A stretch of 64,000 nucleotides of DNA, from assembly GCA_028710985.1 (NCBI GenBank), contig JAQTTB010000001.1, forward strand, positions 295,397 through 359,396, given 5' to 3'. The notes under the pieces are model-generated. The model searched no databases. It saw only the letters and a list, made by a program, of their open reading frames with translations, and was not told the DNA's origin. Below, in pieces: positions 18,195-52,407 of the stretch; positions within the stretch are counted from its first letter, which is position 1; the number at the start of each line of letters is the position of its first letter. The stretch comes from Patescibacteria group bacterium. Lineage in GTDB: Bacteria > Patescibacteriota > Patescibacteriia > JAHJFT01. The translations under genes and the position numbers were made by a program.

Positions 18195-18232
18195 GATAGC
18201 TATTTTTTAGCTAATTTTAGCGAAATTTAGAA

Positions 18233-42300: not shown

Positions 42301-43770
42301 ACAACCATCATGGTATTTGTTAACCCGATGTGGTATTCGGGTGGAGCGATACAAAATAATGGGGACAAATCAACATTTGTTGACAATTTCTCTTTTGAGC
42401 CAGCCTTGTTTGCAACTTCCTCAACTCCGGCCATTGATTCATTCGGCCTCTCGTTCCGCGGTTCGGGTTGGGATACGGTTTCCAGTACCGAAAGAATTTT
42501 GAGCATGACAATTTTGAATGAAGTTTCATCCACTGATGAATTCGGTTTAGCTATTAATAATAGTGATGACGAAAAAGTCGCCTATGTTTCAAATAATGGT
42601 GACTTGATGATTTCCGGCCGGCTGTATCCGTCCGACCGCGGCGTCATGCAGAGCGACAAATATATTTTCTTGGATACAAGCGGCGGATTGGGCGACTACA
42701 TGCGCACCAATGCCGACGGCTGGGCAACCGGTAGCTATGATTATGCCGAAATGTTCTATTCCGATGACGGCCTCACGGCTGGTGAAATCGTGACCGTTGG
42801 CACGGCTGACGAAACCGTGGCGCGCAGCGCGAGCGCTTACCAAAATCCGCTGCTCGGCATCGTCTCAACCAAGCCGGGATTCATTGCCGGTGAATTTGCC
42901 ACTTCAACTCATCCAGTGGCGCTCTCCGGCCGCGTTCCGACCCGTGTGACGAACGTGAATGGCGCTATCGCCATCGGCGATCCGATTACGAGTTCTGACA
43001 TTCCGGGCGTGGGCATGAAAGCCACGGCAAACGGACCGATCGTGGGCTATGCGCTTGAAGCATCAGATTCGGCGGCTGATGAAATTATTCTATATGTTAA
43101 TCCGGGTTGGTGGAACGGCGGTACAACGAGCGCCATTCCGGGCGCCGAAGGGGGCGCTTCCGGATTCCCGGCGGTTCCGGGCGAGGTTACATATATTAAC
43201 GGCGATCTGGATATCACCGGCCATGATCTCTATGGCGTGAAAAAGATTTACGGCAATGGTTACAAATGGGAGATTGACGAAAATGGCGTGGTTATTTCGC
43301 GCGTGGAAACCGGCGGCGGACAAAAAGAAGTCTTTGGCGTCACCGCCACCCAGGCCGAAATTATTGTGAGCGGTTCGGGCATTACGGAAAATGGCGCCGC
43401 AACGGTTGAATTCAGCGCCGAAGTTGTTGCCCTGCTCTCATCCTCCAATTTAAATGTTAAAGTAATCGTTACGCCGACCTCGGCAAATACGGCCGGTCTT
43501 GCAGTAACGGCCAAATCATCGGCCGGATTCACGGTGACCGAACTCAATTCCGGTACTAACGCGGTGACGTTTGATTGGATGCTCATGGCTCCGCGCGCCG
43601 GATACGAAAGAACGCTTGAAGATTACATTGTAAATCCGGCAAGCGCGGCGCCACTGGAAGAATCTTCTTCAACCGAACCAGTCGTGCCTCCGGAAGAGTC
43701 GGGTTCATCAACCGAACCGATTATACCTCCGGAAGAATCTGGTTCTTCAACTGAACCAATAATTCCGTAA
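27340..43770 (+). CDS. giant (5476 aa) secreted repeat protein, adhesin-like (Hep_Hag/YadA-head-like beta-roll repeats, near-identical internal super-repeats, C-terminal tandem PPEESGSSTEPIIP repeats)
   Basis: Single uninterrupted 16,431 nt ORF. Signal peptide (…VLQMAVLMLLVWFGAFVTPEKAHA). Periodic motifs of the form N(T/S)(T/A)(I/V)GxxA(L/G)xxNTTGxxN (for example ANTTGANNSAIGFYALSANTTGANNSVIGY) run through the protein. A unit of about 130 aa (SGAY.VGVADNFSWSASTNVQFVLEDLDLAITNASSSANIWKANASYIYPASTTANVFPSSNNAQSLGAFGSAWKDIYASGT.YLTNVTAANYVNVSDATVGYKIGGNIILRNPYT) recurs at least 8 times with near-identical DNA. A Gly/Tyr-rich xYG(V/I)YA region follows. A duplicated module of about 95 aa lies near the C-terminus, followed by three PPEESGSSTEP(I/V)(I/V)P repeats. 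An intrinsic terminator follows. Confidence 0.7.
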   Translation: MNSIGGRQFKRTLKKTIVLQMAVLMLLVWFGAFVTPEKAHAAINKYINYQGKLLDSSKIPVADGTYGIEFKIYDAVTAGSELWSDSFDVAVDDGLFSILLGSSGTLDLNFEDEAGYWLGVNVEADGEMTPRKEIGAAAYAFNSDLLDGLHATTTGAISSAVVALTANGNLTITGDPQGGAVTQGSLYINPAAPAADETLLGIANNGSQRLLLDAEGDLTVAGYVSTTQLFIDSIDVQTSASRTTSGAYIIGVADNFSWSASTNVQFVLEDLDLAITNASSSANLWTDAGTYIYNTPAGDINRFYDNGDIKFDQVSDTLFIDQSAHSIGIFTTSPTAAALEVDANSLGTTTANKIILANTTAAGAGAQQVSPALNFRSQGWSLAESASQEVDWQVYVLPHQYAGRQATSDLYFQYKLGGESSYRTGIIFTAPFDSGYASLAAYNGTFYNSVSVSAVLSVSTNAYLAYTSTAYRVGIGTNSPGYKLHVVGTSGFDGSLAVSSTNLIFDAAGTAFASSTDRTHSGAYYLGVADNFSWSASTNVQFVLEDLDLAITNASSSANLWKANASYIYPASTTANVFPSSNNAQSLGAFGSAWKDIYASGTSYLTNVTAANYVNVSDATVGYKIGGNIILRNPYTRNILLGQSAGAALNSDGTDNMFLGYLAGAAATSSDYNTFIGSYAGYANTAGTANAFIGYVAGYANTTGANNIFIGSYAGYTNTIGANNSFIGYAAGRYSTTGSYNSFIGNAAGYSNTTGAANAFIGYGAGYYNTTGANNTAIGSYVLYANTTGANNSAIGFYALSANTTGANNSVIGYFASFYNSSATSTVAIGYQAARGTAAYSNQNGVYIGYNAGYAAQTGSDNNIMIGYQAGDSITTGSGNLLIGYDVDNATSTASTNYINIGNTIQGWIGGKIYPYNHGTQDLGAYGYAWKDIWASGTAFLANANLSGNATVLGYVSTTQVYIDSIDIEGQGTGNTTAGAYKIGTYDEFDWSASTNVQDVLDDLDATLTTVSTSAMLWTDAGTYIYNTPAGDINRFYDTGSVNFDATNTTLYVDAMNNRVGVGTNNALSVFHILGSYPQLLINDSSVPSFLSLRGDANIFFNNASNYRIASQAYANRGTATGDTVRFTIQGSNGYVGIATSTPQVMLHVYDGSFRQQDTTGGKTGQLTISTLSSGTLIQETNNGRITYKAYAHTWQTHAGTEIFRTSDGLTAVIFNGNIFSYGNLYTSSSKLFVGSDTTLAESTDRLDSGAYNVGVADNFSWSASTNVQFVLEDLDLAITNASSSANIWKANASYIYPASTTANVFPSSNNAQSLGAFGSAWKDIYASGTAYLTNVTAANYVNVSDATVGYKIGGNIILRNPYTHNTLIGQNAGANINSDGTDNTFIGYFAGYTATSTDYNVFIGPYAGQNNAAGANNSFIGYAAGKDNTTGSGNSFIGYVAGYANTIGNYNSSIGYAAGYANTTGSYNSFIGNAAGQTNTTGANNTGVGYSALYSNTTGVNNTAVGYSALFYNSSATSTVTIGYQAARGTAAYSNQNGVYIGYRAGYVVQTGSDNNIMIGFQAGNSITTGANNILIGYDVDTPLATTSNYLNIGNRIYGSLTDGILNIQPNGDSNNYSRFATVDAQPILYFVSSTMTNYSGFRLNSSTGEMEYRDEDSATYTPFDTIAAGAGIWSTGASYIYPASTTANAFPSSNNAQSLGAFSSAWKDFYASGTSYLTGVLNSDGALGAPSYSFAADSDTGMFWAGTGNVRFSSNGASIVTMGNSEVDVGGSILPTANNTRDLGAFSYAWRNIYASGTAFLTGIQNSVGAVGTPSYSFAGDTNTGIYSPLSDAVAIAVNGAQRFQVTATGAQVTGTVYSDANNSRDIGYFGNAWNDIFASGTAFLADANLSGNATVLGYVSTTQLFIDSIDVQTSASRTTSGAYVIGVADNFSWSASTNVQFVLEDLDLAITNASSSANIWKLGASYIYPASTTADILAGAATPDGVSPFYVDIAGGDRLLQLYKVYGGTLAAGAANYGLHAQVSSTVDVADQIYQMYGAYSQAEFAGTYDSGSGGSITVTGSYSEGRSATNTMYIYGAYNYGLQEAGATADTVYGAYNRAISAGSTNTGVYGTFSDAQGDGISRAYGVYSTVTGGTSNYGFSASVTDGAAGSNYGVNLMVSDGLGSNYGISASVSGSAGGTVQYGGQFTVGGAAGDTNYGIDAEVTGFGVGDTNYGVYANVTGAAANWAGWFAGGDVYVENKLFVSSSELFIGTDTALSESTGRLDSGAYNVGVADNFAWSASTNVQFVLEDLDAAITAAGGIWTDAEGYIYPTAAGDYYDTGARIYDNGEINTDSNLVVDGYAAFGTATDTSKIVNIENTATDKYGLYSHTTSTSLIPGDWYQVPSGAAGYFLADGSYGGVRTNTGIMSRAVGVALFNSGNVSHAYNATNYNFAYFGTASGTNSYVVYGLNPSYGTTVDAWGGYLEVNTTANGGTSDHVGMETKVGGADANWGYKTTTSAPSGEKAYGFWANVDVQAASESYGIYLTLDDLTGVSTNLYGSSMSVKGNAAGYAGTIYGNKIVAQYGGTIYGLDIDIDNIHNYGYGVNVSVDGASYSPVVYLAGKSLKNFGVRGMAASDTADVVGVYGLGTGNGGDNSIFGMVGKATGGISQYGAYLEAVGDTSDATYGLYSRTNTGDSATSYGVYSYAVGGADSTNYGVYAVATDGASTPVVNYGIFASSSAATTNWAGWFGAGDVYVENKLFVSSSELFIGTDTALSESTDRLDSGAYNVGVADNFSWSASTNVQFVLEDLDATLTTVSTSAMLWTDAGTYIYNTPAGDKNRFYDNGAVLFGQSWNTFFVSGTSNYVGIGTATPSTTLHIVGTSYPFVLVEGSSISKFTALRADSKIFFTSTENFNISSQPYANRGTAAGETLRFTILGSNGYVGINTASPTSTLQVTGGDVHFQATGGAPGTYWDYDTGYLGIGTTGPVAKLNISVSGDGTEALRFSTERAWTFRQSGVGGAAKLQLKDLSGQKYFEITGFDDSVTASFYNDFATPAGSRVLLLPGGGNVGIGTTAPNYLLHVSGTSAFMDNMYVSSSELFINTSTYLSESTARDDSGAYNVGVADNFSWSASTNVQFVLEDLDLAITNASSSANIWKANASYIYPASTTANVFPSSNNAQSLGAFGSAWKDIYASGTAYLTNVTAANYVNVSDATVGYKIGGNIILRNPYTRNTLLGQGAGAALNSDGTDNTFIGHGAGNVATSTDYNAFVGAYAGYANTIGNYNSFIGYAAGFSNTIGANNTFIGNAAGQSNTTGAGNIAIGSAALYTNSTSANNTAIGNAALRYTTGANNTGVGYAALYTNTTGAGNTGVGSYTLYANTTGTNNTAIGLYALSANTTGSYNTAIGYYSSLYNSSATSTVAIGYQAARGTAAYSNQNGVYIGYNAGYAAQTGSNNNIMIGYQAGDSITTGSGNLLIGYDVDNATSTASTNYINIGNTLQGWIGGKIYPYNQGTQDLGAYGYAWKDIFASGTAFLANANLSGNATVLGYVSTTQLFIDSIDVQTSASRTTSGAYVIGVADNFSWSASTNVQFVLEDLDLAITNASSSANLWKANASYIYPASTTTKIYVPKQAYPIPSLTFSDDPDTGFGSITANQLTFYAGGTESFTAKASGILNYINWKAPATNSQLNVLGAITTGSGNTAFRIGNENALYGTDRVLAVYSGNLNGELLTVLANGSVGMGDTTPDFGLEVATSTASGFLAVSSVSGNNGDLFMVDEAGRVGINTTDPGYKLHVVGTSGFDGSLAVSSTNLIFDASGTAIASSTDRLHSGAYFVGVDSANITQSASTNVQFVLEDFDLAIVSAGSKWTDAAGYIYPTVAGDYGGTGMKIADDGEISTDGNLTVDGKVAIGTTILGTRMLNIIQAGTGVSNYGINVTASGAGTNNYAIYATATGGAAANWAAYFGAGNVAVLNGNMYVGATTETITDTTFSMAGDDFYDSGMIGAAVALYTNGYICVGGDGCGTDAGTVYVIQAGTGVSNYGVHVTASGAGTTNYGVYATVSGSATNYAFYSPDAGGYSYFGDHVAIEDAAVSDNYALGILETFSGAGITGLQTGVSTTVAFTGSVGAGNYYFGAQSDVATWSGTAGDANDMLIGNAAQIYVTTTGGKTLEDARAFYGYSRVSDGYVSSTYGVYGTSNNSGGLVDYAYGGYFSAEGTATDNYGIYASAEDGQHQIGGNFVATGSTGDSTYGVKIDVAGGDKNYGVYTVVGSADSESYAVYGRTTGGIYSVGSTSYGGYFTGLAVASTTYGVYANASNGTTASYGVFAKGTTAGVYAENPADANDYTQLLNVSGGTVNGVNTQIIHNDAATAYGSKITVTGSAGNAGDLQGVSATLTGVAYDPSSYAYGGYFSAAVTASSTYGIYANASGGTQQSVGVFAKGTSAGVFAENPADASDYTKLMYVDGGTIHGVRVDIQHNNAAEAHGLDIGVTGTGANPGDLYGAKVQTLGTVYDADSLAYGGYFYNTVTASTTYGVYGKAANTSEGSTSYGLYGEAIDGPGVGLQVGVMGVAGDALYSMGVRAQSPKIALAAEDSNDINNHSVYLAHWAASNEAVGVTINNLASLNMSDVSREGLIVSVSGYPGNTRKVTGIDVAANKLGGVGDIFGIDVDTNSNSTSSVNVYGIRSITTGDNNSADGEIYAGYFDITSSDASSSIGVYANAASGDTNWAFYGGGVTDSAFGGDIYVGYGNAGDDDYVYFDGGSTEYLVWDNANARFRFSDDLVADGNVYVGNSSQVDDDYVYFDQAAEWIVYDESVDDRFEITGQVYIITDTQSTNGICGSNAAVGSTELYDCSGTPGDIAEWYPIVEDAVAGDIVYAASSTITYSEVLFDPVSGLSTSSTGTYNTSVVDRASKPYDSRIIGIVSTSPVQRFGENVREVSSSTAVIALIGRVPTRVSDANGPIKAGDQITSSDIRGVGMKSTKPGMVVGTALEDWSGSGETTIMVFVNPMWYSGGAIQNNGDKSTFVDNFSFEPALFATSSTPAIDSFGLSFRGSGWDTVSSTERILSMTILNEVSSTDEFGLAINNSDDEKVAYVSNNGDLMISGRLYPSDRGVMQSDKYIFLDTSGGLGDYMRTNADGWATGSYDYAEMFYSDDGLTAGEIVTVGTADETVARSASAYQNPLLGIVSTKPGFIAGEFATSTHPVALSGRVPTRVTNVNGAIAIGDPITSSDIPGVGMKATANGPIVGYALEASDSAADEIILYVNPGWWNGGTTSAIPGAEGGASGFPAVPGEVTYINGDLDITGHDLYGVKKIYGNGYKWEIDENGVVISRVETGGGQKEVFGVTATQAEIIVSGSGITENGAATVEFSAEVVALLSSSNLNVKVIVTPTSANTAGLAVTAKSSAGFTVTELNSGTNAVTFDWMLMAPRAGYERTLEDYIVNPASAAPLEESSSTEPVVPPEESGSSTEPIIPPEESGSSTEPIIP

Positions 43771-43785
43771 TAATCAAAACAAAAA

Positions 43786-43817
43786 ATCCCCTGAACGAAG
43801 TCGAAGGGGGATTTTTT
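43786..43817 (+). terminator. intrinsic terminator (ATCCCCTGAACGAAGTCGAAGGGGGATTTTTT) after the giant gene
   Basis: Stem ATCCCC/GGGGAT with a T6 run, 16 nt after the stop codon. Confidence 0.6.
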
Positions 43818-43864
43818 AACTGCTTAATTATCTCAATTTTTTTTGGGGTAATTAAGAAGGAATG

Positions 43865-43905
43865 GGAGCGCTTTAGTAAGTTGGCGGCTCCCAGAAGCCA
43901 GAGAA
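43865..43905. repeat. conserved 3'-flank motif GGGAGCGCTTTAGTAAGTTGGCGGCTCCCAGAAGCC (copy 1 of 3) immediately downstream of lipoprotein gene stop
   Basis: Near-identical copies at 45155-45195 and 46505-46545. Each sits just past the stop codon of one of three consecutive minus-strand lipoprotein genes. It contains a short GGGAGC..GCTCCC stem. Confidence 0.55.
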
Positions 43906-43911
43906 GTGGAG

Positions 43912-44970
43912 TTACTCCTGGTAAATGGCGTCGTAGGTTGCTTCGAAGTGTTCCGAGCTATCAAGACCGCTTAGCGCGACTACGCCGGACACGTCGTGTC
44001 CAACCGCCGCATTCACGATCCCGATGAACTCGGGTCCGTAGCAAACCGCTTCGCCATCGGTTAGGAACCAGGAATCGTACACATCGGCGAGGATTTGGCG
44101 CACGCACTCTTGGCCGCAGCCGTGGTAGGCCCACAGCGTGCCAAAAAGCGCGTACCCGATCTGCCGGTCGGGTTGCGAACTCGGCGTGGCGACTTCGGTG
44201 AGTTCAGCGCCGCTGTTGACCGCTTCAACCGCCGTCTTGTAGATGGCGATGTAGATGCGGTCAAAAACGATGATGTCCTCAAGGAATTCAACCAGTCCGT
44301 GATTCCAGATTCCGCCGCAGAAGGGTGACCAGAGGAAGGCATGGGCGAGCTCGTGCGTGGCCGCGGCTTCGAAAGTTCGCGGAACGCCCTCGTCGTCGAG
44401 GTAAGAGACCGTGGGCTCGTTCACGAAACTGTCCTCGTTTACCAGCGCGCCGGACCAGTCGGCATGAACCGTCTGTCCCGAACCCATGGCAAACAGAGCG
44501 AGGTTGAGCGTGCGGTAGCCGGAGTCGTAGTAGCGGTCCACTGCCGTGGGAGGCCGGTATCCGGTCCAGCTGACGAGTTCCGCGTAATAGGGCAGAATCT
44601 CGGTCTGAACCTGGGCAAGTACCTCGTCGCTGACCGTACAGCCGGCGCAGGCCGCGCGAAGTTCCGTACCGGTGGTGCAGGAAGAAATCGGCGTCTCGTC
44701 AATCTCGGCCGGGCAGGTGCCGCCATCCGAATAGACATTGTCGCCGCACCAGTTGTACTTGGTGAGGTTGCTGCATGTCCGGTTGATGAGGCAGAGGTCG
44801 TTCGTGCAGATGGAGCCGTCGTTGCAGTCGTCGTGCGAGCCGCAGAATGGCGGGTTGAACTCCGCCGAAACCGGCGGGTTGGCGAGCGCGACCGGATTGA
44901 TTCCGGCCGGCTCTTGGTAGCAGGCGGGAATCATGATCGCCACGAGGACGATCGCGGCCGTTCGCTTCAT
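43912..44970 (-). CDS. secreted lipoprotein, putative zinc metallopeptidase (HExxH) with N-terminal Cys-rich repeats
   Basis: 352 aa. Signal peptide plus lipobox-like IPAC. Cys-rich module CGSHDDCNDGSICTNDLCLINRTC (C..D.C.DG..CT.D.C pattern). HELAHAF zinc-binding motif. GC content visibly higher than the flanks. Confidence 0.5.
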   Translation of the reverse strand: MKRTAAIVLVAIMIPACYQEPAGINPVALANPPVSAEFNPPFCGSHDDCNDGSICTNDLCLINRTCSNLTKYNWCGDNVYSDGGTCPAEIDETPISSCTTGTELRAACAGCTVSDEVLAQVQTEILPYYAELVSWTGYRPPTAVDRYYDSGYRTLNLALFAMGSGQTVHADWSGALVNEDSFVNEPTVSYLDDEGVPRTFEAAATHELAHAFLWSPFCGGIWNHGLVEFLEDIIVFDRIYIAIYKTAVEAVNSGAELTEVATPSSQPDRQIGYALFGTLWAYHGCGQECVRQILADVYDSWFLTDGEAVCYGPEFIGIVNAAVGHDVSGVVALSGLDSSEHFEATYDAIYQE

Positions 44971-45054
44971 GTGGGTTTCCTCTCAATATTGTAAGGAGCT
45001 TGTTTGTTCAGTCATGAAAGACGGAATTGTCCTTCAATTACATTTTAACATTAA

Positions 45055-45083
45055 ATTATAGCAGATATTAAGAGTTTTGTCAA
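45055..45083 (-). promoter_or_regulatory. consensus sigma70 promoter TTGACA-17-TATAAT for the 43912-44970 gene
   Basis: Read on the minus strand: CCTTGACAAAACTCTTAATATCTGCTATAATTT. Perfect -35 and -10 hexamers with a 17 nt spacer, about 85 nt upstream of the start codon. Confidence 0.6.
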
Positions 45084-45154
45084 GGGTAATAAGGTGATTT
45101 TTTATCTAAAATAAGCAAAATAATATAATATTAGCCAAAATTTGATAAGAAAAA

Positions 45155-45195
45155 AGGGAGCGCTTTGTGGAGGCGGCTCCCAGAAACCTAGGAAG
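45155..45195. repeat. conserved 3'-flank motif (copy 2): GGGAGCGCTTTGTGGAGGCGGCTCCCAGAAACC
   Basis: See 43865-43905. It sits just past the stop of the 45201-46427 gene. Confidence 0.5.
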
Positions 45196-45200
45196 GTGTG

Positions 45201-46427
45201 TTAGTGGCAGTTGAGATTCTTAAATGACAGGCCGGCATTGGTCAGCCAGAGCGCATAGACGTCGTCGCCCACGCGGATGAGTTCGGTGTCGGCGCATCCG
45301 GTGAGATCGAGATCAACCCAGAGTTCGGTTTCCGCGAGGTCGGTCGTGAGCCGGATGACGTGGATGCTGGAAATGCCGGTTTCTAGATCCACACCGCACC
45401 AACTGGCGCGTGCCGGATCATCATCTGACGAATCAATGCCGGCTACGCCCGCGATGTCCCGGTCCAGATCCAGCGCCATGACCGTATCGTCAGGAAGGAC
45501 CCAGCCCGCAGAAAGCTGGTTTATGTCGTCCGCCATGTACCGTTCGTAGAGCACCATCGCCGTACCGCCGGCATTGACCATGGCTCGCGTGGCGAACATG
45601 GTCGGCTCAAGTACGATGGTGGTTACTTCGCCGAATGCGTCAGGCGCCACGAACTCGGTGAGATAAACCGAGTTGTTGGATTCTCCGCGTACCGTGTAGG
45701 CGAGAGACCAGCCGGTTTCGGTTGGTGAAAGTACCGGGCTGCGGCTGTCGGCGCTGATGAGCCGGTGATAGTCGTTGAAACCCGTGCTTGCGGACCAGCG
45801 GCCGAACCAGGCGGTGGCGATTTCCGGATCACGAACTTCAAGGGCCAGACCGTATTCACCATCCAGGCCGAGCTTAACATCGTTGAGCGTGGTCGTGGCT
45901 GGTGATGGGGAGTCCCAGATTTCGCCGCGGTTTATCACTGCGCTCTCGGAGATGCCGTATTCGCCGGTCAACATGATGGCGCTGTCGCTGGAAGTTGCAG
46001 TCCAGAACAGGCGGGGATTCTCGCCGGCGAACCAGAACACGAACGGCTTGCGCAGTTCATTGCCCGGCTCCTCGATTGGAGTAGCCGTGAGTTCCTCGGG
46101 CGGTTCGAGCGGATTGAAGAGAGAGATATTTCCTCGCTCTCCGCTATCGCAGCCGATCCATGCGAGGATGATTCTCTCGTCGTCGCTTGCGGCATCCAGG
46201 CCGCAGCCCAGGGTCGGCAGGTTGATGGTTCTGATCTCGGGATCGCACATCGGTTCCACGCACTCGTCGATCACGTGGCAGAGGTTGTCGGCTCCGCAGT
46301 AGTCCAGCGTGCACTCCACGCCGTCCTCGCACTCGTTGTCCGAGTTGCATTCAGTCTGGCCGTCGAGGTCAACGCGGTAGCAGCTCACGAAACACATGGC
46401 GCAAAGCGCCAGAATCAGCTTCTTCAT
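45201..46427 (-). CDS. secreted lipoprotein with N-terminal Cys-rich repeat module, unknown function
   Basis: 408 aa. Signal plus FVSC lipobox-like. Cys-rich module CNSDNECEDGVECTLDYCGADNLCHVIDECVEPMCDPE. Paralogous in architecture to the 46554-47708 product (shared NP(L/P)E(P/L)P.ELT..P(I/L)E, FW(F/T), SLAYTV segments). Confidence 0.5.
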   Translation of the reverse strand: MKKLILALCAMCFVSCYRVDLDGQTECNSDNECEDGVECTLDYCGADNLCHVIDECVEPMCDPEIRTINLPTLGCGLDAASDDERIILAWIGCDSGERGNISLFNPLEPPEELTATPIEEPGNELRKPFVFWFAGENPRLFWTATSSDSAIMLTGEYGISESAVINRGEIWDSPSPATTTLNDVKLGLDGEYGLALEVRDPEIATAWFGRWSASTGFNDYHRLISADSRSPVLSPTETGWSLAYTVRGESNNSVYLTEFVAPDAFGEVTTIVLEPTMFATRAMVNAGGTAMVLYERYMADDINQLSAGWVLPDDTVMALDLDRDIAGVAGIDSSDDDPARASWCGVDLETGISSIHVIRLTTDLAETELWVDLDLTGCADTELIRVGDDVYALWLTNAGLSFKNLNCH

Positions 46428-46504
46428 TTCAAAACCCTCCTTGGTTTTTTCAAAGTCCGATTTCTACTTTATTGCCCCATACCAATGAGGCAATCAAGAT
46501 GAAA

Positions 46505-46545
46505 TGGGAGCGCTTTAGTAAGTTGGCGGCTCCCGGAAGCCTTTA
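46505..46545. repeat. conserved 3'-flank motif (copy 3): GGGAGCGCTTTAGTAAGTTGGCGGCTCCCGGAAGCC
   Basis: See 43865-43905. It sits just past the stop of the 46554-47708 gene. Confidence 0.5.
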
Positions 46546-46553
46546 GTGAAAGA

Positions 46554-47708
46554 TCAATTGCAGATCTTGCGGTAGGAGAGGTTCTTGCTCGTGGAATCGA
46601 GCCAGAAGATCCAGTCGTTGGTTTCCGTGCCAAGCAGGTGAGTCATCTGGCATCCGCCCGGAAGGCTGATGTCTAGGATGCTTCGTCTTGGAGCCGGACC
46701 AACCAGCTGGACGTGAAGCGAGTCGGCGTCATCTTCGGAACCGCACCAGCTCAATAGCGCCCGGTCATCCCAGAGTGCGCCCAAGCCATGGCTTCCGCTC
46801 GCGTTGCTATCCAGCAGTTCAAGACCGTCGCTTCCGGAGGCGGCGAAGTAGAGTTCACTGTAATCACCGCGGTCCCGGTTAACGAGCAGGAAGTCGTCGG
46901 CCAGAGTCGGCGCGATCGCCGCCGATGAGTATCGTCCGCTTTCCGGGCTGATGAGGACGGCTTCGCCCAGCCCATGAACTAGTGAATAGTCCACGGTCCA
47001 GACATCGCCGTAAGCCGGATCAAGCTCCGGATGAACGGTGTAGGCGAGCGAGTAACCATCCGCTACCGTGTCAACAACTCCATGAGTCGTGAACGGCGCG
47101 TCGCCGAGTTCCTGGATCGTCTTGAGCTCGCCATCGAGCGAGAACCGAGCGAACATTGCCTGCTGGTAACCTACGACTTCATCGTGGTATGCCCAGACCA
47201 AGCCGTATTCGCCCGACGGGTGGAAAACCGCCTCGCCCAGGCTCGAGTAGTAGCCCTGGTCAAAGAGAATCTTTGGCTCGCCCAAGCTTCCCGTTTCTAG
47301 GTCGTACTCGGCCATGACGAGAGTGCCGCGCGAGTCCGAGGCGTGATAGCGGGTCCAGAAGATCTGCGGATTGCCATCGTGCCAGAGAACTCGCGGATTC
47401 CACACCGCGAGATCCTCATCGGTCTCGAGGGGAATGGGAGTGAGTTCGGCGGGAGGGTTCTCGAGTTCGAATACCGCGATGTGACCCTTGCCCATGTCGC
47501 AGCCACGATCGCGCCAGACAAGCGTGGCCAGGCCGTTGCGGCTCGCCACGTCATAGTCTTCCACGCCTTCTGCGAACGAGAAGGCATGGGTCACGGGTAT
47601 GCACATTGGCTCACAGCCGCCGTCCGGGCAGTCGGATTCGGCATATCGCGCTTCGCTCATATAGCAGCCGGTCGCAAAAAGCGCCGTTGCGATTATCAGG
47701 TTTCTCAT
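46554..47708 (-). CDS. secreted lipoprotein, paralog of 45201-46427 product
   Basis: 384 aa. Signal plus ATGC lipobox-like. Cys-rich N-terminus CPDGGCEPMC. Shared sequence blocks with the neighbouring lipoprotein. High GC. Confidence 0.5.
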   Translation of the reverse strand: MRNLIIATALFATGCYMSEARYAESDCPDGGCEPMCIPVTHAFSFAEGVEDYDVASRNGLATLVWRDRGCDMGKGHIAVFELENPPAELTPIPLETDEDLAVWNPRVLWHDGNPQIFWTRYHASDSRGTLVMAEYDLETGSLGEPKILFDQGYYSSLGEAVFHPSGEYGLVWAYHDEVVGYQQAMFARFSLDGELKTIQELGDAPFTTHGVVDTVADGYSLAYTVHPELDPAYGDVWTVDYSLVHGLGEAVLISPESGRYSSAAIAPTLADDFLLVNRDRGDYSELYFAASGSDGLELLDSNASGSHGLGALWDDRALLSWCGSEDDADSLHVQLVGPAPRRSILDISLPGGCQMTHLLGTETNDWIFWLDSTSKNLSYRKICN

Positions 47709-47770
47709 CGGTCCTCTCCTTGTGTTTTATGGTTGGATTTCAATGTCCCATGCTACCATTGTAGCCTGAA

Positions 47771-47799
47771 ATTATAGCATATTTAAGCGGTTTTGTCAA
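47771..47799 (-). promoter_or_regulatory. consensus sigma70 promoter TTGACA-17-TATAAT for the 46554-47708 gene
   Basis: Read on the minus strand: CCTTGACAAAACCGCTTAAATATGCTATAATTT. This is a near-duplicate of the promoter at 45055-45083. Confidence 0.6.
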
Positions 47800-47855
47800 G
47801 GCTCTGTACAGTTAATCTCTAAGGGTGACTAAGGTTAACTATACCGAGGCGCATA

Positions 47856-47884
47856 CAAAAAACCGCCCAAAGGCGGTTTTGATA
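47856..47884. terminator. bidirectional intrinsic terminator AAAAAACCGCCCAAAGGCGGTTTTGA
   Basis: GC stem CCGCC/GGCGG flanked by A and T runs. It lies between divergent/convergent units. Confidence 0.55.
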
Positions 47885-47903
47885 ATTTTTATGATTAATA
47901 TAT

Positions 47904-48257
47904 CTATTCTGCCGGTTTGGGAAAAATCTTAATCTGCCCCAGGCGCTCCAGATCGGCTTGGTCAATTAGCCCGTGGCTTGCCATTATGCTAGTTTGTGTG
48001 TCTATTTTTTCTTCTAATTTTTTGTCCCGGACCACGGTTTCGCCAGATAAATCAGCGATTTTATCGGCCAAATAATCTCGGGTATCCATAATATCCTTTT
48101 TAGTTGCCATGGTTGAACGTATTTCTTTGATTTCTCCCTTAATACCGCCAATCTCTTCTCGCAATTCATCAAACTGCGGAGCAATGGTTTGCTCGTAAAA
48201 ATTGCCAAATTCTGTCCCGATTTTCTTTAAATCTTGGTCATCTAACATATAAAACAA
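47904..48257 (-). CDS. hypothetical coiled-coil protein
   Basis: 117 aa, charged and heptad-like. No motif recognised. Confidence 0.35.
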   Translation of the reverse strand: MFYMLDDQDLKKIGTEFGNFYEQTIAPQFDELREEIGGIKGEIKEIRSTMATKKDIMDTRDYLADKIADLSGETVVRDKKLEEKIDTQTSIMASHGLIDQADLERLGQIKIFPKPAE

Positions 48258-48340: not shown

Positions 48341-48796
48341 GCTCCAAATTCCAAACACCAAGCTCCAAATAAATTTCAATGGGCGAAATCCCAAAATCCA
48401 AACCCTATAATCTGGAAGAAAGAACCTTTGAATTTTCAAAGCAAGTAGCTGTTTTTTGCAAGAATTTACCCAAAACTCAAAGCAATTATGAGTATACCAG
48501 ACAGGTTATTCGATCTTCCGGATCGGTTGGTGCGAATTACATTGAAGCCAACGAAGCGTTAAGCAGCAAAGATTTCTTGATGAGAATTAAGATTTGCCGC
48601 AAGGAGGCAAAGGAAACCGCATATTGGATTGGCCTAATTATTGCGACAAACGACGCAGACCTCGAAAACGCCAAGCGACTATATGAAGAAGCCATTGAAT
48701 TAAAAAAGATATTTTCATCAATCGCAGAGAAAACAAAAAAAGTTTGAAATTTGGATTTTGGCATTTATTTGTAATTTGGTGCTTGTTATTTGGAGT
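48341..48796 (+). mobile_element. IVS-like cassette C: four-helix-bundle gene enclosed by CCAAA/TTTGG-type inverted repeats
   Basis: Left arm GCTCCAAATTCCAAACACCAAGCTCCAAATAAATTTCA (48341-48378) continues into the first codons (ATGGGCGAAATCCCAAAATCCAAA). Right arm AAATTTGGATTTTGGCATTTATTTGTAATTTGGTGCTTGTTATTTGGAG (48748-48796) is its imperfect reverse complement. Confidence 0.55.
48379..48747 (+). CDS. four-helix-bundle protein (23S rRNA intervening-sequence protein family)
   Basis: 122 aa. ...FEFSKQVAVFCKNLPKTQSNYEYTRQVIRSSGSVGANYIEANEALSSKDFLMRIKICRKEAKETAYWIGLI: the family pattern. Confidence 0.8.
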   Translation: MGEIPKSKPYNLEERTFEFSKQVAVFCKNLPKTQSNYEYTRQVIRSSGSVGANYIEANEALSSKDFLMRIKICRKEAKETAYWIGLIIATNDADLENAKRLYEEAIELKKIFSSIAEKTKKV

Positions 48797-48869
48797 TTAG
48801 AAAGTCAGTTCTTTAAAATAATAAAAAAAGCTCTATTAACAGAGCTTGCTAATTCATAAGAGAAATAAT

Positions 48870-51377
48870 ATGGCATTCCCATATACCCCGGCGGTTCAGG
48901 ATCCATCCTCTGCCGCTCCGGACAAGCCATTTTCGGCTCAGGCGCATGCCTCTGTCGGAATCGGCAAAGTCAAGCCAGCGGGGCAAAAGCGCACGTTAGG
49001 AGAAGCTTCAAGGCTTATCCGATTTTGCGATTTTGTCATCCGCTGGTCAATCTACCTGGCGGTTTTTTTAATTCCGCTCTGGTTTTTACCGTTCACTCAG
49101 GATGCCCTTGAGATAAACAAGCAGACCCTGCTTGTAATTCTCTCGGTTATCGCGCTTCTTGCCTGGTTCGGCCGCATGATGGCCTTGCGCCAGGTTGAGT
49201 TTAAGCGGACCGTCCTGAATCTCATCGTTGCTCTTTATGTTTTGGGTTACGGCATTGTCGCCTGGTTTTCCAGCGACCGGTATTTAAGTTTTGTTGGCAC
49301 CGGTACCCTTGAGCAGTTCAGTTTCTTGTCGGTTCTTGCCTTTGCCGTCATGTACTTTGTTATTTCAAACAACGTACGCGACCTTAAGTTCGTGCGCAAT
49401 ATTCTGTACACACTGGCTGGTGCGTTAACCCTAACCTCGTTCTTCGGCATTCTGCAGATGCTCGGCGCGTATATTTTGCCCTGGGATTTCGCGCGCGTCG
49501 TTACATTCAATACAATCGGCACGATCTATGCCCTGGGCATTTTCCAAGTTATTGGACTCCTCGTGATCAATGCCCTGATTCTCGTAATGTCCGGCGGCGG
49601 CGCGGTCTTTTGTCCGGCTGGGCGCTGCGGCATCGCGAGCAAAGTGCTTTTAATTATTGCCGCGGTCTTAAATCTCATTGGTTTAATACTGCTTGATTTC
49701 TGGATTGTTTGGGTTCTTCTGATTGTGGGATCAATAATCGTACTCGCGTTTGCAATTGTCCGCGCCGGCGAATTCCGGCCCGGCGCGCCGTTCATGCTGC
49801 CCATGCTGACGCTTGTGATCGCAGTCTTGCTTCTAATCGTTAATCTTCCGCTCGGCATCAATCTTCCTGCTGAAATCAGCCCATCAACCGGCGCGAGTTT
49901 TGAAATTGCCAAATCCGCGCTTCAGGAATCGCCGCTCGTTGGTTCGGGCCCCGGCACGTTTGGTTATGACTATACCAAATTTCACTCGTCGGCCGTTAAT
50001 GCCACGATTTTTTGGAATGTGATTTTTGACCGTGCCAACTCCCATGCGCTTACACTCCTTGCGACCACCGGTCTCATTGGTCTGATGCTCTGGCTCGTTT
50101 TGATTGCCGTGGCGGCGGTGCGCGCAATTATCAATTTGTTCCGCGACAACCGTGCGGAAATCTGGCGATATATTTTAGTTATCGGTTCAGTATTTATCAC
50201 GGTGATTGTGTCGCGCTTCCTTTATTCTTCAAACTTCGTCGGTGAATTCATATTTTGGCTGTTCCTCGGCCTCGTCGGCGCCCTGATTTCGCGCGAGTGG
50301 TTTCGCGCCGATTTCAAGATTTCGCCGCGCGCCGCGCTCACCATGAGCTTTGTGTTTATTATTCTCATTGTGGGGTCGGTCTCGTTGATATACCTCGCTT
50401 GTCAGCGCTACGCCGCCGAAGTTATATTTGTTCAGGCAATTAAACTTGATCAAAACCGCGGTTCGATTGATGATGTAATCACAAAACTGAATTCCGCCGT
50501 GCGTCTCAACCGCTACGAGGACACGTATCTCCGGAATCTGTCCAGCGCGGTTACGGCAAAATTTGCAAACGAAGTGAGCGGGCAGGTACCGCAGGAAAAA
50601 GCCACCTACGTGCAATCCCTCATTAATGATATGGTAAGTATCGCCAAGGCCGCGGCCGATTTGAATCCCGCGAACAGCGCCAACTGGGCGAATCTCGGCG
50701 CAACTTACCGTAGTCTCGTGCCGTATGTTCAGGGCTCGGGCGACGCGGCCAAGGTTGCCGAAGAAAAAGTAGTTGAACTCGCGCCGACCAACCCGGTGTC
50801 TTACATTGATCTTGCCATGACGCATATCGCGGTCGCGGATTTGAATTTGGCCCTCACCCAGTCCGAGGATGAAAAGATTGCGGCTGAAGCAAAAACCATT
50901 GTTACCGAAAATCTCGCCAGGGCCGAAGAACTCCTGAATAAAGCGATTGAACTGAAACAGGATTACGCACCGGCTCATTATCAACTCGCGCTTGTCTATG
51001 ACCGTCAGGGAAAACTCGCTGAGGCGATTGTAAAAATGGAGCAAGTTGCGGCCGCTAATACCGATGACGTTGGCGTGGCTTTCCAGCTTGGCATGCTTTA
51101 TCTCCGCAATAACGATAACGACAAGGCGCGGAACGCCCTTGAATACGCGGTCAAGCTTGTGCCGAGTTATTCCAATGCCCGCTGGTTCCTGGCCACGGTT
51201 TACGAAAATCTGAAGGATATACCCAAGGCCATTGAGCAGGTGGAAAAAGTGCTTGAGCTCAATCCGGATAACGCCACCATCAAACAGCGTCTGGATAACC
51301 TGAAGCAATACGGTACTTCTCAACCGCCGTCCATTCCCGAACCCGTGAAAGAAGGCACGGCCGCGCCGCAGCGATAA
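48870..51377 (+). CDS. O-antigen ligase/Wzy_C-like polytopic membrane protein with C-terminal TPR domain (paralog of 12587-14668)
   Basis: The ORF-track start at 48846 is a TTG; the first ATG is at 48870 (MAFPYT). More than 10 TM helices. C-terminal TPR repeats (AHYQLALVYDRQGKLAEAIVKMEQ...ARWFLATVYENLKDIPKAIEQVEKVLELNPDN). The fully overlapping antisense 401 aa ORF at 50229-51434 was rejected. Confidence 0.55.
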   Translation: MAFPYTPAVQDPSSAAPDKPFSAQAHASVGIGKVKPAGQKRTLGEASRLIRFCDFVIRWSIYLAVFLIPLWFLPFTQDALEINKQTLLVILSVIALLAWFGRMMALRQVEFKRTVLNLIVALYVLGYGIVAWFSSDRYLSFVGTGTLEQFSFLSVLAFAVMYFVISNNVRDLKFVRNILYTLAGALTLTSFFGILQMLGAYILPWDFARVVTFNTIGTIYALGIFQVIGLLVINALILVMSGGGAVFCPAGRCGIASKVLLIIAAVLNLIGLILLDFWIVWVLLIVGSIIVLAFAIVRAGEFRPGAPFMLPMLTLVIAVLLLIVNLPLGINLPAEISPSTGASFEIAKSALQESPLVGSGPGTFGYDYTKFHSSAVNATIFWNVIFDRANSHALTLLATTGLIGLMLWLVLIAVAAVRAIINLFRDNRAEIWRYILVIGSVFITVIVSRFLYSSNFVGEFIFWLFLGLVGALISREWFRADFKISPRAALTMSFVFIILIVGSVSLIYLACQRYAAEVIFVQAIKLDQNRGSIDDVITKLNSAVRLNRYEDTYLRNLSSAVTAKFANEVSGQVPQEKATYVQSLINDMVSIAKAAADLNPANSANWANLGATYRSLVPYVQGSGDAAKVAEEKVVELAPTNPVSYIDLAMTHIAVADLNLALTQSEDEKIAAEAKTIVTENLARAEELLNKAIELKQDYAPAHYQLALVYDRQGKLAEAIVKMEQVAAANTDDVGVAFQLGMLYLRNNDNDKARNALEYAVKLVPSYSNARWFLATVYENLKDIPKAIEQVEKVLELNPDNATIKQRLDNLKQYGTSQPPSIPEPVKEGTAAPQR

Positions 51378-51567: not shown

Positions 51568-51640
51568 GGGCTCGTAGCTCAGTTGGTAGAGCGCCTCCAT
51601 GGCATGGAGGAGGTCAGGAGTTCGAGACTCCTCGGGTCCA
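51568..51640 (+). tRNA. tRNA-Ala (anticodon GGC)
   Basis: Folded by hand: acceptor stem GGGCTCG/CGGGTCC with the G3:U70 alanine identity pair; D-arm GCTCAGTTGGTAGAGC; anticodon stem CCTCC/GGAGG with loop ATGGCAT (U33, GGC, A37); T-arm GGAGTTCGAGACTCC; discriminator A. The 3' CCA is not encoded. A flanking inverted repeat AATCAGTG/CACTGATT extends the acceptor stem. Confidence 0.85.
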
Positions 51641-51774
51641 CTGATTAAATTATTTTTTATTCAATATTCGCTGAAGTAGGCATGCCTGTCCGCCGAAGTA
51701 CCGATAGCAATCGGGACGTAGGCGGAGAAGAGGTCACCCCGACATAACGTCGGGGTCGGGACCAAAATAATACT

Positions 51775-52362
51775 ATGCCCATTCCATCGCGCGAACTCGG
51801 CCGCCGTTCCATCCGGTTAAAAGGATATGATTATTCCCGACCCGGATTTTATTTTGTGACGCTTTGCACGTTTCAGAGAGTGTGTTTGTTTGGCGAAATA
51901 GTGGATGATCAGATGATTTTGAACAGGCTTGGTAAAATCATAATTGATGAATGGCGCAATATTCATAAGCGATACAGCGAAGTCGCTTTGGATAAATATA
52001 TTATAATGCCAAATCATATTCATGGAATTATTCAAATTAATGTAGGGGCGACCCTTGCGGTCGCCCCGAATAGGGCGGACCGTTCAGGCGCATGGGTCAG
52101 GGCAGGCGCAAGGCCTGCCCCTACAGCGCACGATATAAGTTTGGGAGATATTATAGGGTCATTCAAATCATTGTGCGTCAATGAATGGATAAAGAATAAT
52201 GCGAATGACCCGATTCGCCAGGCCGCAAATATTTGGCAGCGCAATTATTACGAACGCATTATCCGTACGTTAGCCGAATTATCAGAAACACGCAAATATA
52301 TTCAAGAAAATCCTATAAAATGGCAGGCGGATGACAATCATCCGGACAATTTTAAAAAATAA
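51775..52362 (+). CDS. IS200/IS605-family Y1 (HUH) transposase, REP-associated tyrosine transposase (RAYT)-like, with GC-rich palindromic insert in the HUH-Tyr linker
   Basis: 195 aa. HUH motif MPNHIHGII. Catalytic-Tyr region IWQRNYYERIIRT...YIQENPIKW is typical of TnpA_REP/IS200-like proteins. Residues about 90-120 (VGATLAVAPNRADRSGAWVRAGARPAPTAH) are encoded by two GC-rich hairpins. Confidence 0.65.
   Translation: MPIPSRELGRRSIRLKGYDYSRPGFYFVTLCTFQRVCLFGEIVDDQMILNRLGKIIIDEWRNIHKRYSEVALDKYIIMPNHIHGIIQINVGATLAVAPNRADRSGAWVRAGARPAPTAHDISLGDIIGSFKSLCVNEWIKNNANDPIRQAANIWQRNYYERIIRTLAELSETRKYIQENPIKWQADDNHPDNFKK
52045..52120. repeat. REP-like palindromes inside the RAYT ORF (GGGGCGACCCTTGCGGTCGCCCC at 52045-52067; GGGCAGGCGCAAGGCCTGCCC at 52100-52120)
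   Basis: Both are perfect 8-9 bp stem palindromes. They are much more GC-rich than the surrounding ORF, but they are in frame. Confidence 0.6.
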
Positions 52363-52367
52363 CCGTA

Positions 52368-52407
52368 GGGGCGACCCTTGCGGTCGCCCCGTATAGCGCG
52401 GTCGCCC
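52368..52407. repeat. REP-like palindrome GGGGCGACCCTTGCGGTCGCCCC (second copy) immediately 3' of RAYT stop, followed by partial third copy
   Basis: Identical 23-mer to 52045-52067. It starts 6 nt after the stop codon. GCGCGGTCGCCC follows. Confidence 0.6.

Follow-up and report, generated by a model that had tools for sequence, protein, structure and literature searches.

The chromosomal stretch analysed here, a window of 64,000 nucleotides on contig JAQTTB010000001.1 of an uncultivated, ultra-small Patescibacteria group bacterium, contains three consecutive lipoprotein genes, designated A, B and C, that on balance probably constitute a native, fast-turnover surface-lipoprotein cassette locus of the Patescibacteria (Candidate Phyla Radiation, CPR). 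On one side of the locus a giant surface-protein gene ends, and on the other lies the gene of a Wzy_C/TPR membrane protein. The anatomy of the locus is modular, and both flanks of the coding parts are conserved across relatives whose cargo proteins are 25-40% identical. Since conserved flanks surround differing cargo in the relatives, the flanks are taken to be a conserved frame within which the coding parts have been exchanged. The coordinates of the features are listed in Table 1.

Reading of the region 43500-48200 gave three consecutive open reading frames (ORFs) on the minus strand, each with a lipoprotein-type N-terminus. All three proteins are recorded in a single metagenome-assembled genome ('Patescibacteria group bacterium'; PHW53_01615, PHW53_01620 and PHW53_01625, contig of 744,538 bp). 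Read by eye, each protein has the basic N-terminus and hydrophobic core of a bacterial lipoprotein signal ahead of its lipobox, which is ..LFATG/C-Y in A (MRNLIIATALFATGC-Y), ..CFVSC-Y in B and ..MIPAC-Y in C. The [G/S/A]-C-Y junction recurs in most relatives, including those with unrelated cargo; a relative of C (P0002) and both lipoproteins of contig L002 differ at position +2. The public annotation of A (PHW53_01625, 368 aa) begins at Met17, 16 residues downstream of the start assigned here, and has neither signal peptide nor lipobox; because the longer ORF has a ribosome-binding site (AAGGAGAGG) directly upstream and fits the N-terminus of the family, the database start is probably wrong. 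Neither lgt nor lspA lies within the 64-kb window.

A perfect TTGACA-17-TATAAT promoter with TG at the extended -10 position occurs exactly twice in the window (0.03 occurrences expected from shuffles), before A (P_A) and before C (P_C), just where the original prediction had placed them. P_A and P_C form a 45-nt repeat with 78% identity, and the AT-rich DNA upstream of P_C carries TTTTAG(C/A)TAA-like motifs. No promoter precedes B, and the 126 nt between A and B are occupied by hairpins alone. A and B are therefore an operon, and there are two transcription units (P_A to A-B and P_C to C) in place of the three identical cassettes that had been proposed. Promoters matching 11 of 12 consensus positions lie upstream of hyp307 (18233), the gene at 51775, rpsF (54829), ftsK (62803) and a 117-aa gene (48285), and of this promoter type, native to the organism, the cassette promoters are the strongest. 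In relatives, the motif TTTTAGCTAA accompanies the cassette promoters, lying inside or upstream of them; in the window it precedes the 18233 promoter and lies inside the spacer of the rpsF (S6) promoter, where it is conserved in the related contig L016; it may be a lineage-specific UP-element or regulator site. A palindromic AT-rich form, TTTTAGCTAA(A/T)TTT, was observed near several near-consensus promoters, at 18195-18261, at 54829-54857 and at 4800-4850 of L016.

Downstream of each gene is a 3′ module, the layout of which emerged from folding and from comparison with relatives: a pyrimidine-rich tract, hairpin 1, a UUYC-type linker, and hairpin 2. The tract is 16-37 nt long, G-poor and 68-84% C+U, often with CCUUCCU or CCUUCUU. 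Hairpin 1 starts with GGG and ends with CCC in all copies but one. Hairpin 2 is AT-rich, with the consensus CUUAAUUAYCYC-loop-GRGAURAUUAAG. A canonical terminator lies downstream of the module wherever the transcript should end. The exact 29-mer GGGAGCGCTTTAGTAAGTTGGCGGCTCCC, a GGGAGC...GCTCCC hairpin, constitutes hairpin 1 after A and after C, with a variant after B, when none would be expected from shuffles; extended by the flanking R-GAAGCC, the motif ends 12 nt past the stop codon at each gene. The original prediction of a conserved motif after all three genes was thus right in that each gene has the hairpin at this distance, and needs correction in that the loop after B is different and shorter; the second hairpin and the pyrimidine-rich tract, which also belong to the module, were absent from it.

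The three copies of the module differ in their surroundings. The copy after A is inside the operon, has both hairpins but no U-tract, and runs into the ribosome-binding site of B. After B, hairpin 1 (ΔG -11.1 kcal/mol) is followed directly by U6, and this module is likely the terminator of the A-B operon. The copy after C is followed by a bidirectional terminator, and a 56-nt repeat comprising parts of the copies after A and C is 89% identical between them. The features of an intrinsic terminator (a GC-rich stem and a U-tract) are present after B and in part after A and C, where the tails are interrupted (AUUUCAUCUU and AUUCCUUCUU). A consensus terminator scanner missed all three hairpins, since each has a loop longer than 8 nt.

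In searches covering 5.8 billion and 1.84 billion proteins, the only relatives were a few from metagenomes, with one to four homologues per protein; the relatives in high-GC deltaproteobacteria or actinobacteria that had been expected did not appear. B has relatives at 69% (contig L005), 40% (L006) and 35% (L002) identity, and is itself the sole relative of A; C has one relative at 60% identity (P0002, on L001), to which an exhaustive profile search added two distant members. The contigs compared here are those that carry homologues, plus three more from a metagenome scan for hairpin 2.

The order of elements is maintained on these contigs while the cargo changes. On L001, an A/B-family gene is followed by a module, a terminator, a perfect promoter, a C-like gene, a second module, and a terminator facing a convergent giant gene. 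On L002, the order is a B-like lipoprotein gene, a module, a PEGA-domain lipoprotein gene, a terminator, a perfect promoter, a gene for a 316-aa lipoprotein (HETTH..SWLNEGLA), a hairpin and a convergent giant gene. Contigs L016 and L022 reproduce the synteny of the window (helix-turn-helix gene-recA-efp-ssb-rpsF-methyltransferase gene-ychF-Wzy/TPR), and the slot between the Wzy/TPR gene and the giant gene is occupied by genes for 453-aa (A/B-family), 368-aa and 404-aa lipoproteins with promoter and 3′ features. Wherever the upstream flank is on the contig, the promoter is mostly perfect; before the 368-aa gene of L022 it matches at 11 of 12 positions (TATTAT). The module of CU-tract and hairpins is likewise present in the relatives, with hairpin 2 missing after the third gene of L002 and after the 368-aa gene of L022. 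The convergent giant gene recurs in L001, L002 and L022, with the same shared-terminator arrangement as in the window.

The extent of the exchange can be judged from pairs of contigs. Between the window and L016, housekeeping proteins are 57-84% identical and A/B-family proteins only 25-30%; the Wzy/TPR protein of the window is 70% identical to its L016 orthologue, which directly adjoins the 453-aa A/B-family lipoprotein. The presence of related cassettes at the same slot in relatives with this degree of housekeeping identity indicates that the slot is old. Between L001 and L022, identity is 87% in the neighbouring gene, 76% in the promoter and 78% in the 3′ untranslated region (UTR) next to the giant gene, and the cargo between these shared flanks differs: a C-like gene in L001, genes for the 404-aa and 368-aa proteins in L022. 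On L005, a promoter 94% identical to P_A over 51 nt directly drives the orthologue of B, and both gene A and the 117-aa gene are absent.

Table 1. Features of the cassette locus and its borders (positions in the 64,000-nt window; bits are scores with the covariance model R1).
Feature	Position	Strand	Description
Gene A	46554-47708	-	384-aa lipoprotein, predicted beta-propeller family; full Cys module absent
Gene B	45201-46427	-	408-aa lipoprotein; Cys knot residues 27-50 (46278-46349); predicted 7-bladed beta-propeller residues 61-408
Gene C	43912-44970	-	352-aa lipoprotein; Cys knot residues 43-66 (44773-44844); helical C-terminal domain with HELAH (44341-44355) and WNHG
Promoter P_A	47771-47799	-	12/12 match; predicted to drive the A-B operon; 5′UTR ~56 nt
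Promoter P_C	45055-45083	-	perfect consensus with TG; predicted to drive C; 5′UTR ~78 nt
3′ module after A	46464-46548	-	tract, hairpin 1 (46506-46534), AUUUCAU linker, hairpin 2 (46467-46498, CUUGAUUGCCUC..GGGGCAAUAAAG); 77 bits
3′ module after B	45127-45195	-	tract, hairpin 1 variant (45156-45181), then UUUUUUCUU; hairpin 2 degenerate; 33 bits
3′ module after C	43820-43906	-	tract, hairpin 1 (43864-43892), AUUCCUU linker, hairpin 2 (43823-43856, CUUAAUUACCCC..GAGAUAAUUAAG); 83 bits
Bidirectional intrinsic terminator	43781-43817	.	common to gene C and the convergent giant gene; folded stem between A- and U-tracts
Giant repetitive ORF	27340-43770	+	5,476 aa; convergent with the cassettes; conserved left border of the locus
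Wzy_C/TPR membrane protein	48846-51377	+	Pfam; right border of the locus, conserved in L016

The pairing of hairpin 1 is kept through five different stems (GGGAGC/GCUCCC, GGGC/GCCC, GGGCUA/UAGCCC, GGGCUAAC/GUUAGCCC and GGGAACGC/GCGUUCCC), with ΔG of -5 to -14.6 kcal/mol, and -17.3 kcal/mol for the aberrant variant after the 368-aa gene of L022 that is not of the GGG...CCC type. Hairpin 2 is paired at 86.7% over 10 copies, compared with 24-44% when the partner strand is slid; both sides have changed in 4 of 12 pairs, with paired changes at stem positions 6-9 from U-A to C-G, A-U to G-C and U-A to G-U. Fold z-scores of the module regions are -2.1 to -5.9. A covariance model (R1) built from 10 module copies matched, within the 64-kb window, only the copies that follow A, B and C (the next best match had E=1.6) and, within 12.5 kb of L016, only the copy after the lipoprotein gene. 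In all sequence reachable, therefore, the 3′ module goes with these genes alone, and the motif, as the original prediction required, does not occur ubiquitously after unrelated genes. Comparison with Rfam 15 (E<=10) returned only noise, the best overlapping match being STnc470 with 21 bits against a threshold of 80. The hairpin 1 pattern had seven single matches, in unrelated phyla, in a genome collection without the source genome, for which a rough estimate of the number expected by chance is ~3-4. The metagenome scan for hairpin 2 yielded 12 loci, of which only four, the L002 contig among them, were true relatives; the others were unrelated perfect palindromes. An antisense ORF or small RNA encoded by the purine-rich complement of the tract was considered and rejected, there being only a 7-codon ORF.

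Two short-read Logan contigs that independently cover B and C of the same strain (L026 and L027) start ~105 nt upstream of B, and L026 ends ~50 nt past C; these ends fall within or next to copies of the 3′ module, which is what a repeat would produce. Repeated modules seem to fragment assemblies, which may explain why the relatives are seen only on very short contigs.

The proteins of the locus are diverse. A and B are 27% identical (E=1e-21) and C is unrelated to either apart from a 24-residue cysteine (Cys) knot; as A and B are old paralogues, the three genes are not the recent duplicates that they had been supposed to be. The knot, a C-x5-C-x5-C-x4-C-x5-C module, is found only in B and C (BLASTP E=0.005), A having kept a CPDGGCEPMC remnant, so that of the description of all three as lipoproteins starting with a Cys module, the lipoprotein N-termini stand for all and the module for two. 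Its proposed resemblance to the Myxococcus repeat was not borne out: neither Dicty_CTDC (PF00526) nor the Myxococcus cysteine-rich repeat (TIGR02232) matched A, B or C at E<=1. Pfam and NCBIfam gave nothing above noise for the three proteins (DUF7107, E=0.53; GH43, E=0.096). Among the relatives of B, P0005 and P0006 (40% and 35% identity) pass PF00526 with 33.5 and 32.4 bits (cutoff 27), and the module of B aligns to the second repeat of each; the 453-aa protein of L016 (L016_453) scores 17.5 bits.

The structure of B was modelled with AlphaFold 2 (AF2) from five sequences, with a mean predicted local distance difference test (pLDDT) score of 78 and a predicted template-modelling (pTM) score of 0.77. 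Residues 61-408 of the model are all beta, with 28 strands, and residues 1-60, which comprise the signal peptide and the Cys knot, are disordered or modelled with low confidence. Foldseek found 473 matches in the PDB at E<=0.001, mostly seven-bladed propellers, the best being Photorhabdus PLL/PHL lectins and GH145 enzymes (TM 0.5-0.65, 9-15% identity, Foldseek E of about 1e-7). B is therefore predicted to adopt a seven-bladed beta-propeller, which establishes a fold and not a function; the propellers of A and B are probably binding modules.

The family of C has four members, in which H206, E207, H210, C218, W222, H224, G225 and several Cys are invariant. The HExxH motif noticed in one protein of the original prediction is indeed present in C, and in all four members of its family (HELAH, HELAH, HETVH and HETLH). 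Eleven residues after HELAH, C has W-N-H-G-L-V-E, which parallels HETTH...W-L-N-E-G in the positionally equivalent gene of L002. Glu228 is not invariant (Met in P0008), and the invariant His224 (WxHG) is the candidate third zinc ligand; the motif suggests a gluzincin-like site in which His replaces the third-ligand Glu. Of the secreted hydrolases that had been envisaged, the export of lipoproteins and a conserved HExxH in C remain, and the A/B propellers are without catalytic signature.

The G+C content (GC) of A, B and C is 0.597, 0.596 and 0.610 by per-gene calculation, and that of their third codon positions (GC3) 0.706, 0.733 and 0.771. The 27 other ORFs of the window have a mean GC of 0.493 (standard deviation 0.047, maximum 0.558) and a mean GC3 of 0.550 (maximum 0.644), and the four intergenic flanks of the cassettes have GC of 0.34-0.44, so the impression of GC-rich genes with AT-rich flanks was accurate. 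The difference at first and second positions (GC1 and GC2) tracks the amino-acid composition of the cassette genes, which relative to other genes are low in Lys (1.1% vs 5.7%) and Ile (5.0% vs 8.0%) and high in Asp (8.3% vs 5.2%), Cys (3.3% vs 0.7%) and Trp (2.5% vs 1.2%). Codons were compared by site class, an earlier likelihood test being uninformative because the giant gene dominates the reference. Four-fold degenerate sites hardly distinguish the cassettes (GC4 of 0.74 vs 0.684 for all other genes; most housekeeping genes are at 0.65-0.79, with RmuC lower at 0.53). At two-fold sites, the C-fraction of NNY codons is 0.755 in the cassettes and 0.456 in other genes (Fisher p=1.7e-24), which confirms that codon usage truly differs, and the value for each of A, B and C exceeds that of every other gene in the window (maximum 0.625). 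The G-fraction of NNR codons is 0.571 vs 0.384. C-ending codons are preferred (TTC 0.84 vs 0.32, TAC 0.78 vs 0.44, ATC 0.75 vs 0.41, AAC 0.67 vs 0.40), and all Lys codons of the cassette genes are AAG.

The same signature is seen in L016, a relative with lower GC: housekeeping genes there have GC4 of 0.41-0.62, and the cassette genes have GC4 of 0.70-0.74 and NNY-C of 0.77-0.78, except for the 368-aa gene (0.61 on both measures). The cassettes thus carry their own composition across differing host backgrounds. This signature fits a shared, laterally exchanged cassette pool or a GC bias linked to recombination; it does not fit recent import from a named high-GC phylum, where no homologue was found. 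Codon usage of the host itself is dependent on context, with GC-rich four-fold boxes (GC4 ~0.72) and AT-leaning NNY and NNR codons (C 0.46, G 0.38), a contrast between site classes that is missing from the cassette genes. Another GC-rich gene in a low-GC CPR background is a 167-aa ORF of L016 (2204-2707; GC 0.625, GC3 0.86, no signal peptide) inserted between recA and efp, which in the window are only 75 bp apart.

No integrase or transposase gene was found in or beside the island when window ORFs of at least 150 aa were scanned (the giant ORF at its two ends only), nor are there direct repeats flanking the island or tandem repeats in the cassette coding regions. The nearest tRNA gene (Ala, 51568-51641) is 3.7 kb away, beyond the Wzy/TPR gene. 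BLAST against plasmids and phages gave no match, and viral scans by DNA motif and by protein profile gave nothing related. Several kinds of mobile or variable element were accordingly rejected. A genomic island would have mobility genes, att repeats or a tRNA border in addition to atypical composition, and its slot would not be occupied in relatives. For an integron, there is no IntI domain in the scanned ORFs, RYYYAAC/GTTRRRY cores are absent from the module sequences, and the cassettes carry their own promoters. A prophage or an integrative and conjugative element is rejected for want of integrase and att sites, and a repetitive extragenic palindromic (REP) element with its tyrosine transposase (RAYT) because a REP-like hairpin nearby has a different sequence. 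The target of a diversity-generating retroelement was considered on account of an Avd-like gene nearby, but no reverse transcriptase or template/variable repeat was seen.

Several observations weigh against the interpretation of the locus as a native cassette system. Known copies of the module number only ~13, probably from no more than six genomes. Covariation in hairpin 2 (0.144, compared with 0.099 in shuffles) was reached by 11 of 500 shuffles, and relatedness of the copies inflates the measure, so the covariation is suggestive rather than conclusive; moreover, MAFFT gave a different homology for hairpin 1 and no structure-consistent alignment, for which reason covariation was counted for hairpin 2 only and hairpin 1 was tabulated copy by copy. 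Most copies of hairpin 2 have two C.A mismatches on the sense strand that would be G.U pairs on the opposite strand, which leaves room for a role as a DNA palindrome. The cassette genes of L016 are outliers at four-fold sites, as lateral origin would predict. The cassette codon bias is not shared by S6 or EF-P (NNY-C of 0.52 and 0.37), nor by RecA (0.59). C is, judging from its motif, probably a zincin-type metalloprotease, yet its AF2 model (from a 2-sequence alignment) has pLDDT of 44, which makes a fold search meaningless (the best Foldseek probability was 0.44 for a 28-column match, and that of the top-ranked match was 0.08); no relative of C was found in Pfam, and none of C or of the L002 HETTH protein in the PDB by profile or single sequence. 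Finally, we infer all of the functional steps of the cassette locus.

Four other explanations can be considered. The explanation closest to the original prediction is a recent island from a high-GC donor (Myxococcota or Actinobacteria), with genes and flanks duplicated in situ and host-targeting hydrolases as products. GC, GC3 and two-fold codon usage are clear outliers, the L016 cassette gene with GC4 of 0.74 stands apart from housekeeping genes at 0.41-0.62, and the sequences just 3′ of A and C match at 89% over 56 nt, all of which such an island would account for. Against it, homologues occur only on a few CPR-like metagenome contigs and not among plasmids, phages or viruses; such cassettes fill the slot in relatives of 57-84% housekeeping identity; A and B are 27% identical and C is unrelated; four-fold composition in the window (0.74) is inside the housekeeping range of 0.65-0.79; the promoters match the style of the host; integrase, att repeats and adjacent tRNA are lacking; and A and B have no hydrolase signature. 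The 'recent' and 'duplicated' parts are largely refuted and the whole is very unlikely. What survives of the horizontally acquired island is its atypical composition, without the recent arrival, and of the duplicated flanks of foreign origin their cassette-like character, the promoters being in the host's own style; lateral exchange of cassettes within the clade is plausible, and 'horizontally acquired' may hold in this narrower sense. The GC-rich codons could alternatively result from very high expression, with C-ending codons selected as the optimal ones for translation, in keeping with the concentration of the shift in Phe, Tyr, Ile and Asn codons, with four-fold sites that barely differ in the window, and with perfect consensus promoters. 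Simple expression-linked selection is nevertheless improbable, because S6 and EF-P, and RecA as well, are without the bias; exclusive use of AAG for Lys and the elevated NNR-G (0.57 vs 0.38) point to GC pressure over tRNA matching, and four-fold sites are outliers in L016 too. We regard codon selection as highly doubtful for these reasons.

Two further explanations concern the 3′ module. It might comprise ordinary terminators or stabilising stem-loops, their similarity due to descent and gene conversion and the cassette-like appearance a by-product. The U6 after hairpin 1 of B, the canonical terminators that come after the module where they are present, the near-identity of the A and C copies within one genome, as gene conversion would give, and the modest covariation are all compatible with this. 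Yet loci whose proteins are 25-40% identical have kept the hairpin 2 arms, the UUYC linker and the tract, and at that distance neutral non-coding DNA should be randomised; the module also occurs inside operons where no U-tract follows (in L003, in L006 and after A), and other terminators of the window are unlike it. This explanation has a low though real chance of being correct. Alternatively the module, and especially the quasi-palindrome CTTAATTAYCYC..GRGATRATTAAG, might act as DNA, either as the site of a dimeric regulator or as the site of a dedicated recombinase that moves the cassettes. Both arms fit one degenerate half-site, several copies pair better antisense (reverse-strand matches of 28-44 bits), and the breakpoints of cargo replacement lie between promoter and 3′ module. 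However, neither the window nor L002, L016 or L022 has a recombinase or regulator gene linked to the locus, paired changes occur at stem positions 6-9, and the module is always upstream of the terminator, a position from which it follows that the module is transcribed. A DNA site is unlikely.

If the locus is a native cassette system, its 3′ module would act in the mRNA. The hairpin and U6 after B would terminate transcription, and the hairpins without U-tract after A would permit read-through into B and protect the 3′ end. The CCUUCCU-like pyrimidine tract, being complementary to AGGAGG, may base-pair with Shine-Dalgarno sequences. Candidate roles of the module that we infer are thus terminator or attenuator and stabiliser, possibly anti-Shine-Dalgarno tract, and possibly recombination handle. 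The conserved flanks could supply homology for the exchange of cassettes between strains, and the GC and codon anomaly would mark a shared cassette pool or recombination-linked bias rather than recent high-GC import. The cargo varies: it comprises propellers, only some of which have Dicty_CTDC-like disulfide knots, as well as an orphan HExxH...WxHG protein. The products would be displayed on the cell surface and participate in host-cell contact. A more ambitious proposal joins these steps: the 5′ frame (promoter, 5′UTR and lipobox) and the 3′ frame (tract, GGG..CCC hairpin and CUUAAUUA..UAAUUAAG hairpin) would be a dedicated system by which the clade swaps and expresses surface lipoproteins beside a giant adhesin-like gene, with the module serving both as regulatory 3′UTR (attenuator, stabiliser and anti-Shine-Dalgarno tract) and as recombination handle, and the GC-rich codons being the mark of a clade-wide mobile pool. 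In this full form the proposal is rather improbable.

The locus may be compared with known systems. The Vlp, Vsp and Vpma/Vsa systems of Mycoplasma are clusters of lipoprotein genes in Mollicutes with conserved 5′ regions and signal peptides and variable mature parts. In both cases the bacteria have small genomes, reduced walls and dependence on hosts, 5′ regions are conserved and mature parts variable, and gene content varies by strain. The present locus differs in having no intragenic tandem repeats and no homopolymer or invertible promoter switch, and no linked Xer-like recombinase was found; each unit has a constitutive-looking consensus promoter, and the structured 3′UTR module has no counterpart in Mollicutes. 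Integron cassettes with attC also consist of exchangeable ORFs with an imperfect inverted repeat directly 3′ and variable cargo at a fixed locus, but here there are no IntI and no R″/R′ GTTRRRY core sites, the units have their own promoters, the hairpin arms are conserved in sequence, and cassette orientation is not uniform in L022. Anti-Shine-Dalgarno elements are found in 3′UTRs such as that of Staphylococcus aureus icaR. The module is like Rho-independent terminators and 3′ stabilisers in having a GC hairpin followed by U-rich sequence at the end of a gene, and like elements of the icaR type in having a pyrimidine tract complementary to AGGAGG in the 3′UTR; unlike either, it has a fixed layout of tract, hairpin 1 and hairpin 2 with conserved sequence, is also located inside operons, and belongs to one functional class of genes.

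Similarities of the proteins to known families are more limited. Extracellular proteins that are rich in Cys, vary between strains and weakly resemble the Myxococcus Cys-rich repeats have been described from CPR Peregrinibacteria (PMC4736985); these share export, C-x-D-x-C-T-x-D-x-C disulfide modules and strain variation with the proteins described here, but are multi-repeat proteins of >1,600 aa, whereas those of the present locus have 350-450 aa, a lipobox and a single 24-residue knot. Residues 61-408 of B have the overall fold of Photorhabdus PLL/PHL lectins and GH145, but at 9-15% identity no binding or catalytic residues can be mapped, and the match is generic, extending to Sec12, LGI1 and WD40 proteins. 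The HELAH...WNHG of C is reminiscent of gluzincins (HExxH-x18-E in M1 and HExxH...W.xEG in Peptidase_MA_2), and HETTH...SWLNEGLA in the last gene of L002 has the classical pattern, but C has an invariant His at the position of the third-ligand Glu and no detectable homology to any peptidase family.

The setting of the locus is ordinary chromosome near the replication origin, with dnaA, dnaN, PBP1, polA, holA, rmuC, ychF, rpsF, Asp/Asn-tRNA synthetase, efp, recA and ftsK in the window. The giant ORF on the left has many internal repeats (for example, ...SGAYxIGVADNFSWSASTNVQFVLEDLDLAITNASSSAN...) and unusual codon usage with T-rich third positions (GC3 0.50); no Pfam match was found in its first and last 1,000 residues, and its C-terminal ~900-1,150 residues are 48-52% identical to the partial homologues on L002 and L022, which also converge on lipoprotein cassettes. 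Two small low-GC genes (47904-48257 and 48379-48747; GC 0.41 and 0.39) separate the cassettes from the Wzy/TPR gene and encode the 117-aa coiled-coil-like protein and a 23S-rRNA-intervening-sequence protein (Avd-like, PF05635); both are absent from the syntenic L016 and the former apparently also from L005, so they look like more recent insertions. Beyond the Wzy/TPR gene and just downstream of the tRNA-Ala gene is an IS200/Y1-transposase-like (RAYT-like) ORF (51775-52362), with an exact 26-nt GC-rich hairpin, GTAGGGGCGACCCTTGCGGTCGCCCC, inside it (52042-52067) and again at its 3′ end (52365-52390), the only two copies within the window. The Wzy_C (O-antigen-ligase-like) membrane protein with C-terminal TPR repeats has a paralogue at 12587-14668, and the stretch at 20.6-27.1 kb contains several surface-protein genes of the fn3, dockerin and CarboxypepD_reg kinds, making the region rich in envelope and surface functions.

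Variable surface-lipoprotein loci are already known as a kind, and it is the structured, gene-class-specific 3′UTR module that is new to Rfam; if functional, it would be among the few cis-regulatory RNA elements described for Patescibacteria. It would then also be of practical use as a marker when metagenomes are searched for further cassettes of this type. The locus offers a caution as well, in that a 'GC-rich island' can be a stable property of a gene class and is not proof that DNA has recently come in from a GC-rich phylum. Much of bacterial diversity belongs to the Patescibacteria, which live in attachment to other cells. To our knowledge, the means by which they recognise and hold their hosts are largely unknown. 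With its giant-gene neighbour, its consensus promoters, the strongest of the region, and its cargo that is replaced between close relatives, the cassette locus is a concrete candidate for a determinant of host interaction and surface variation.

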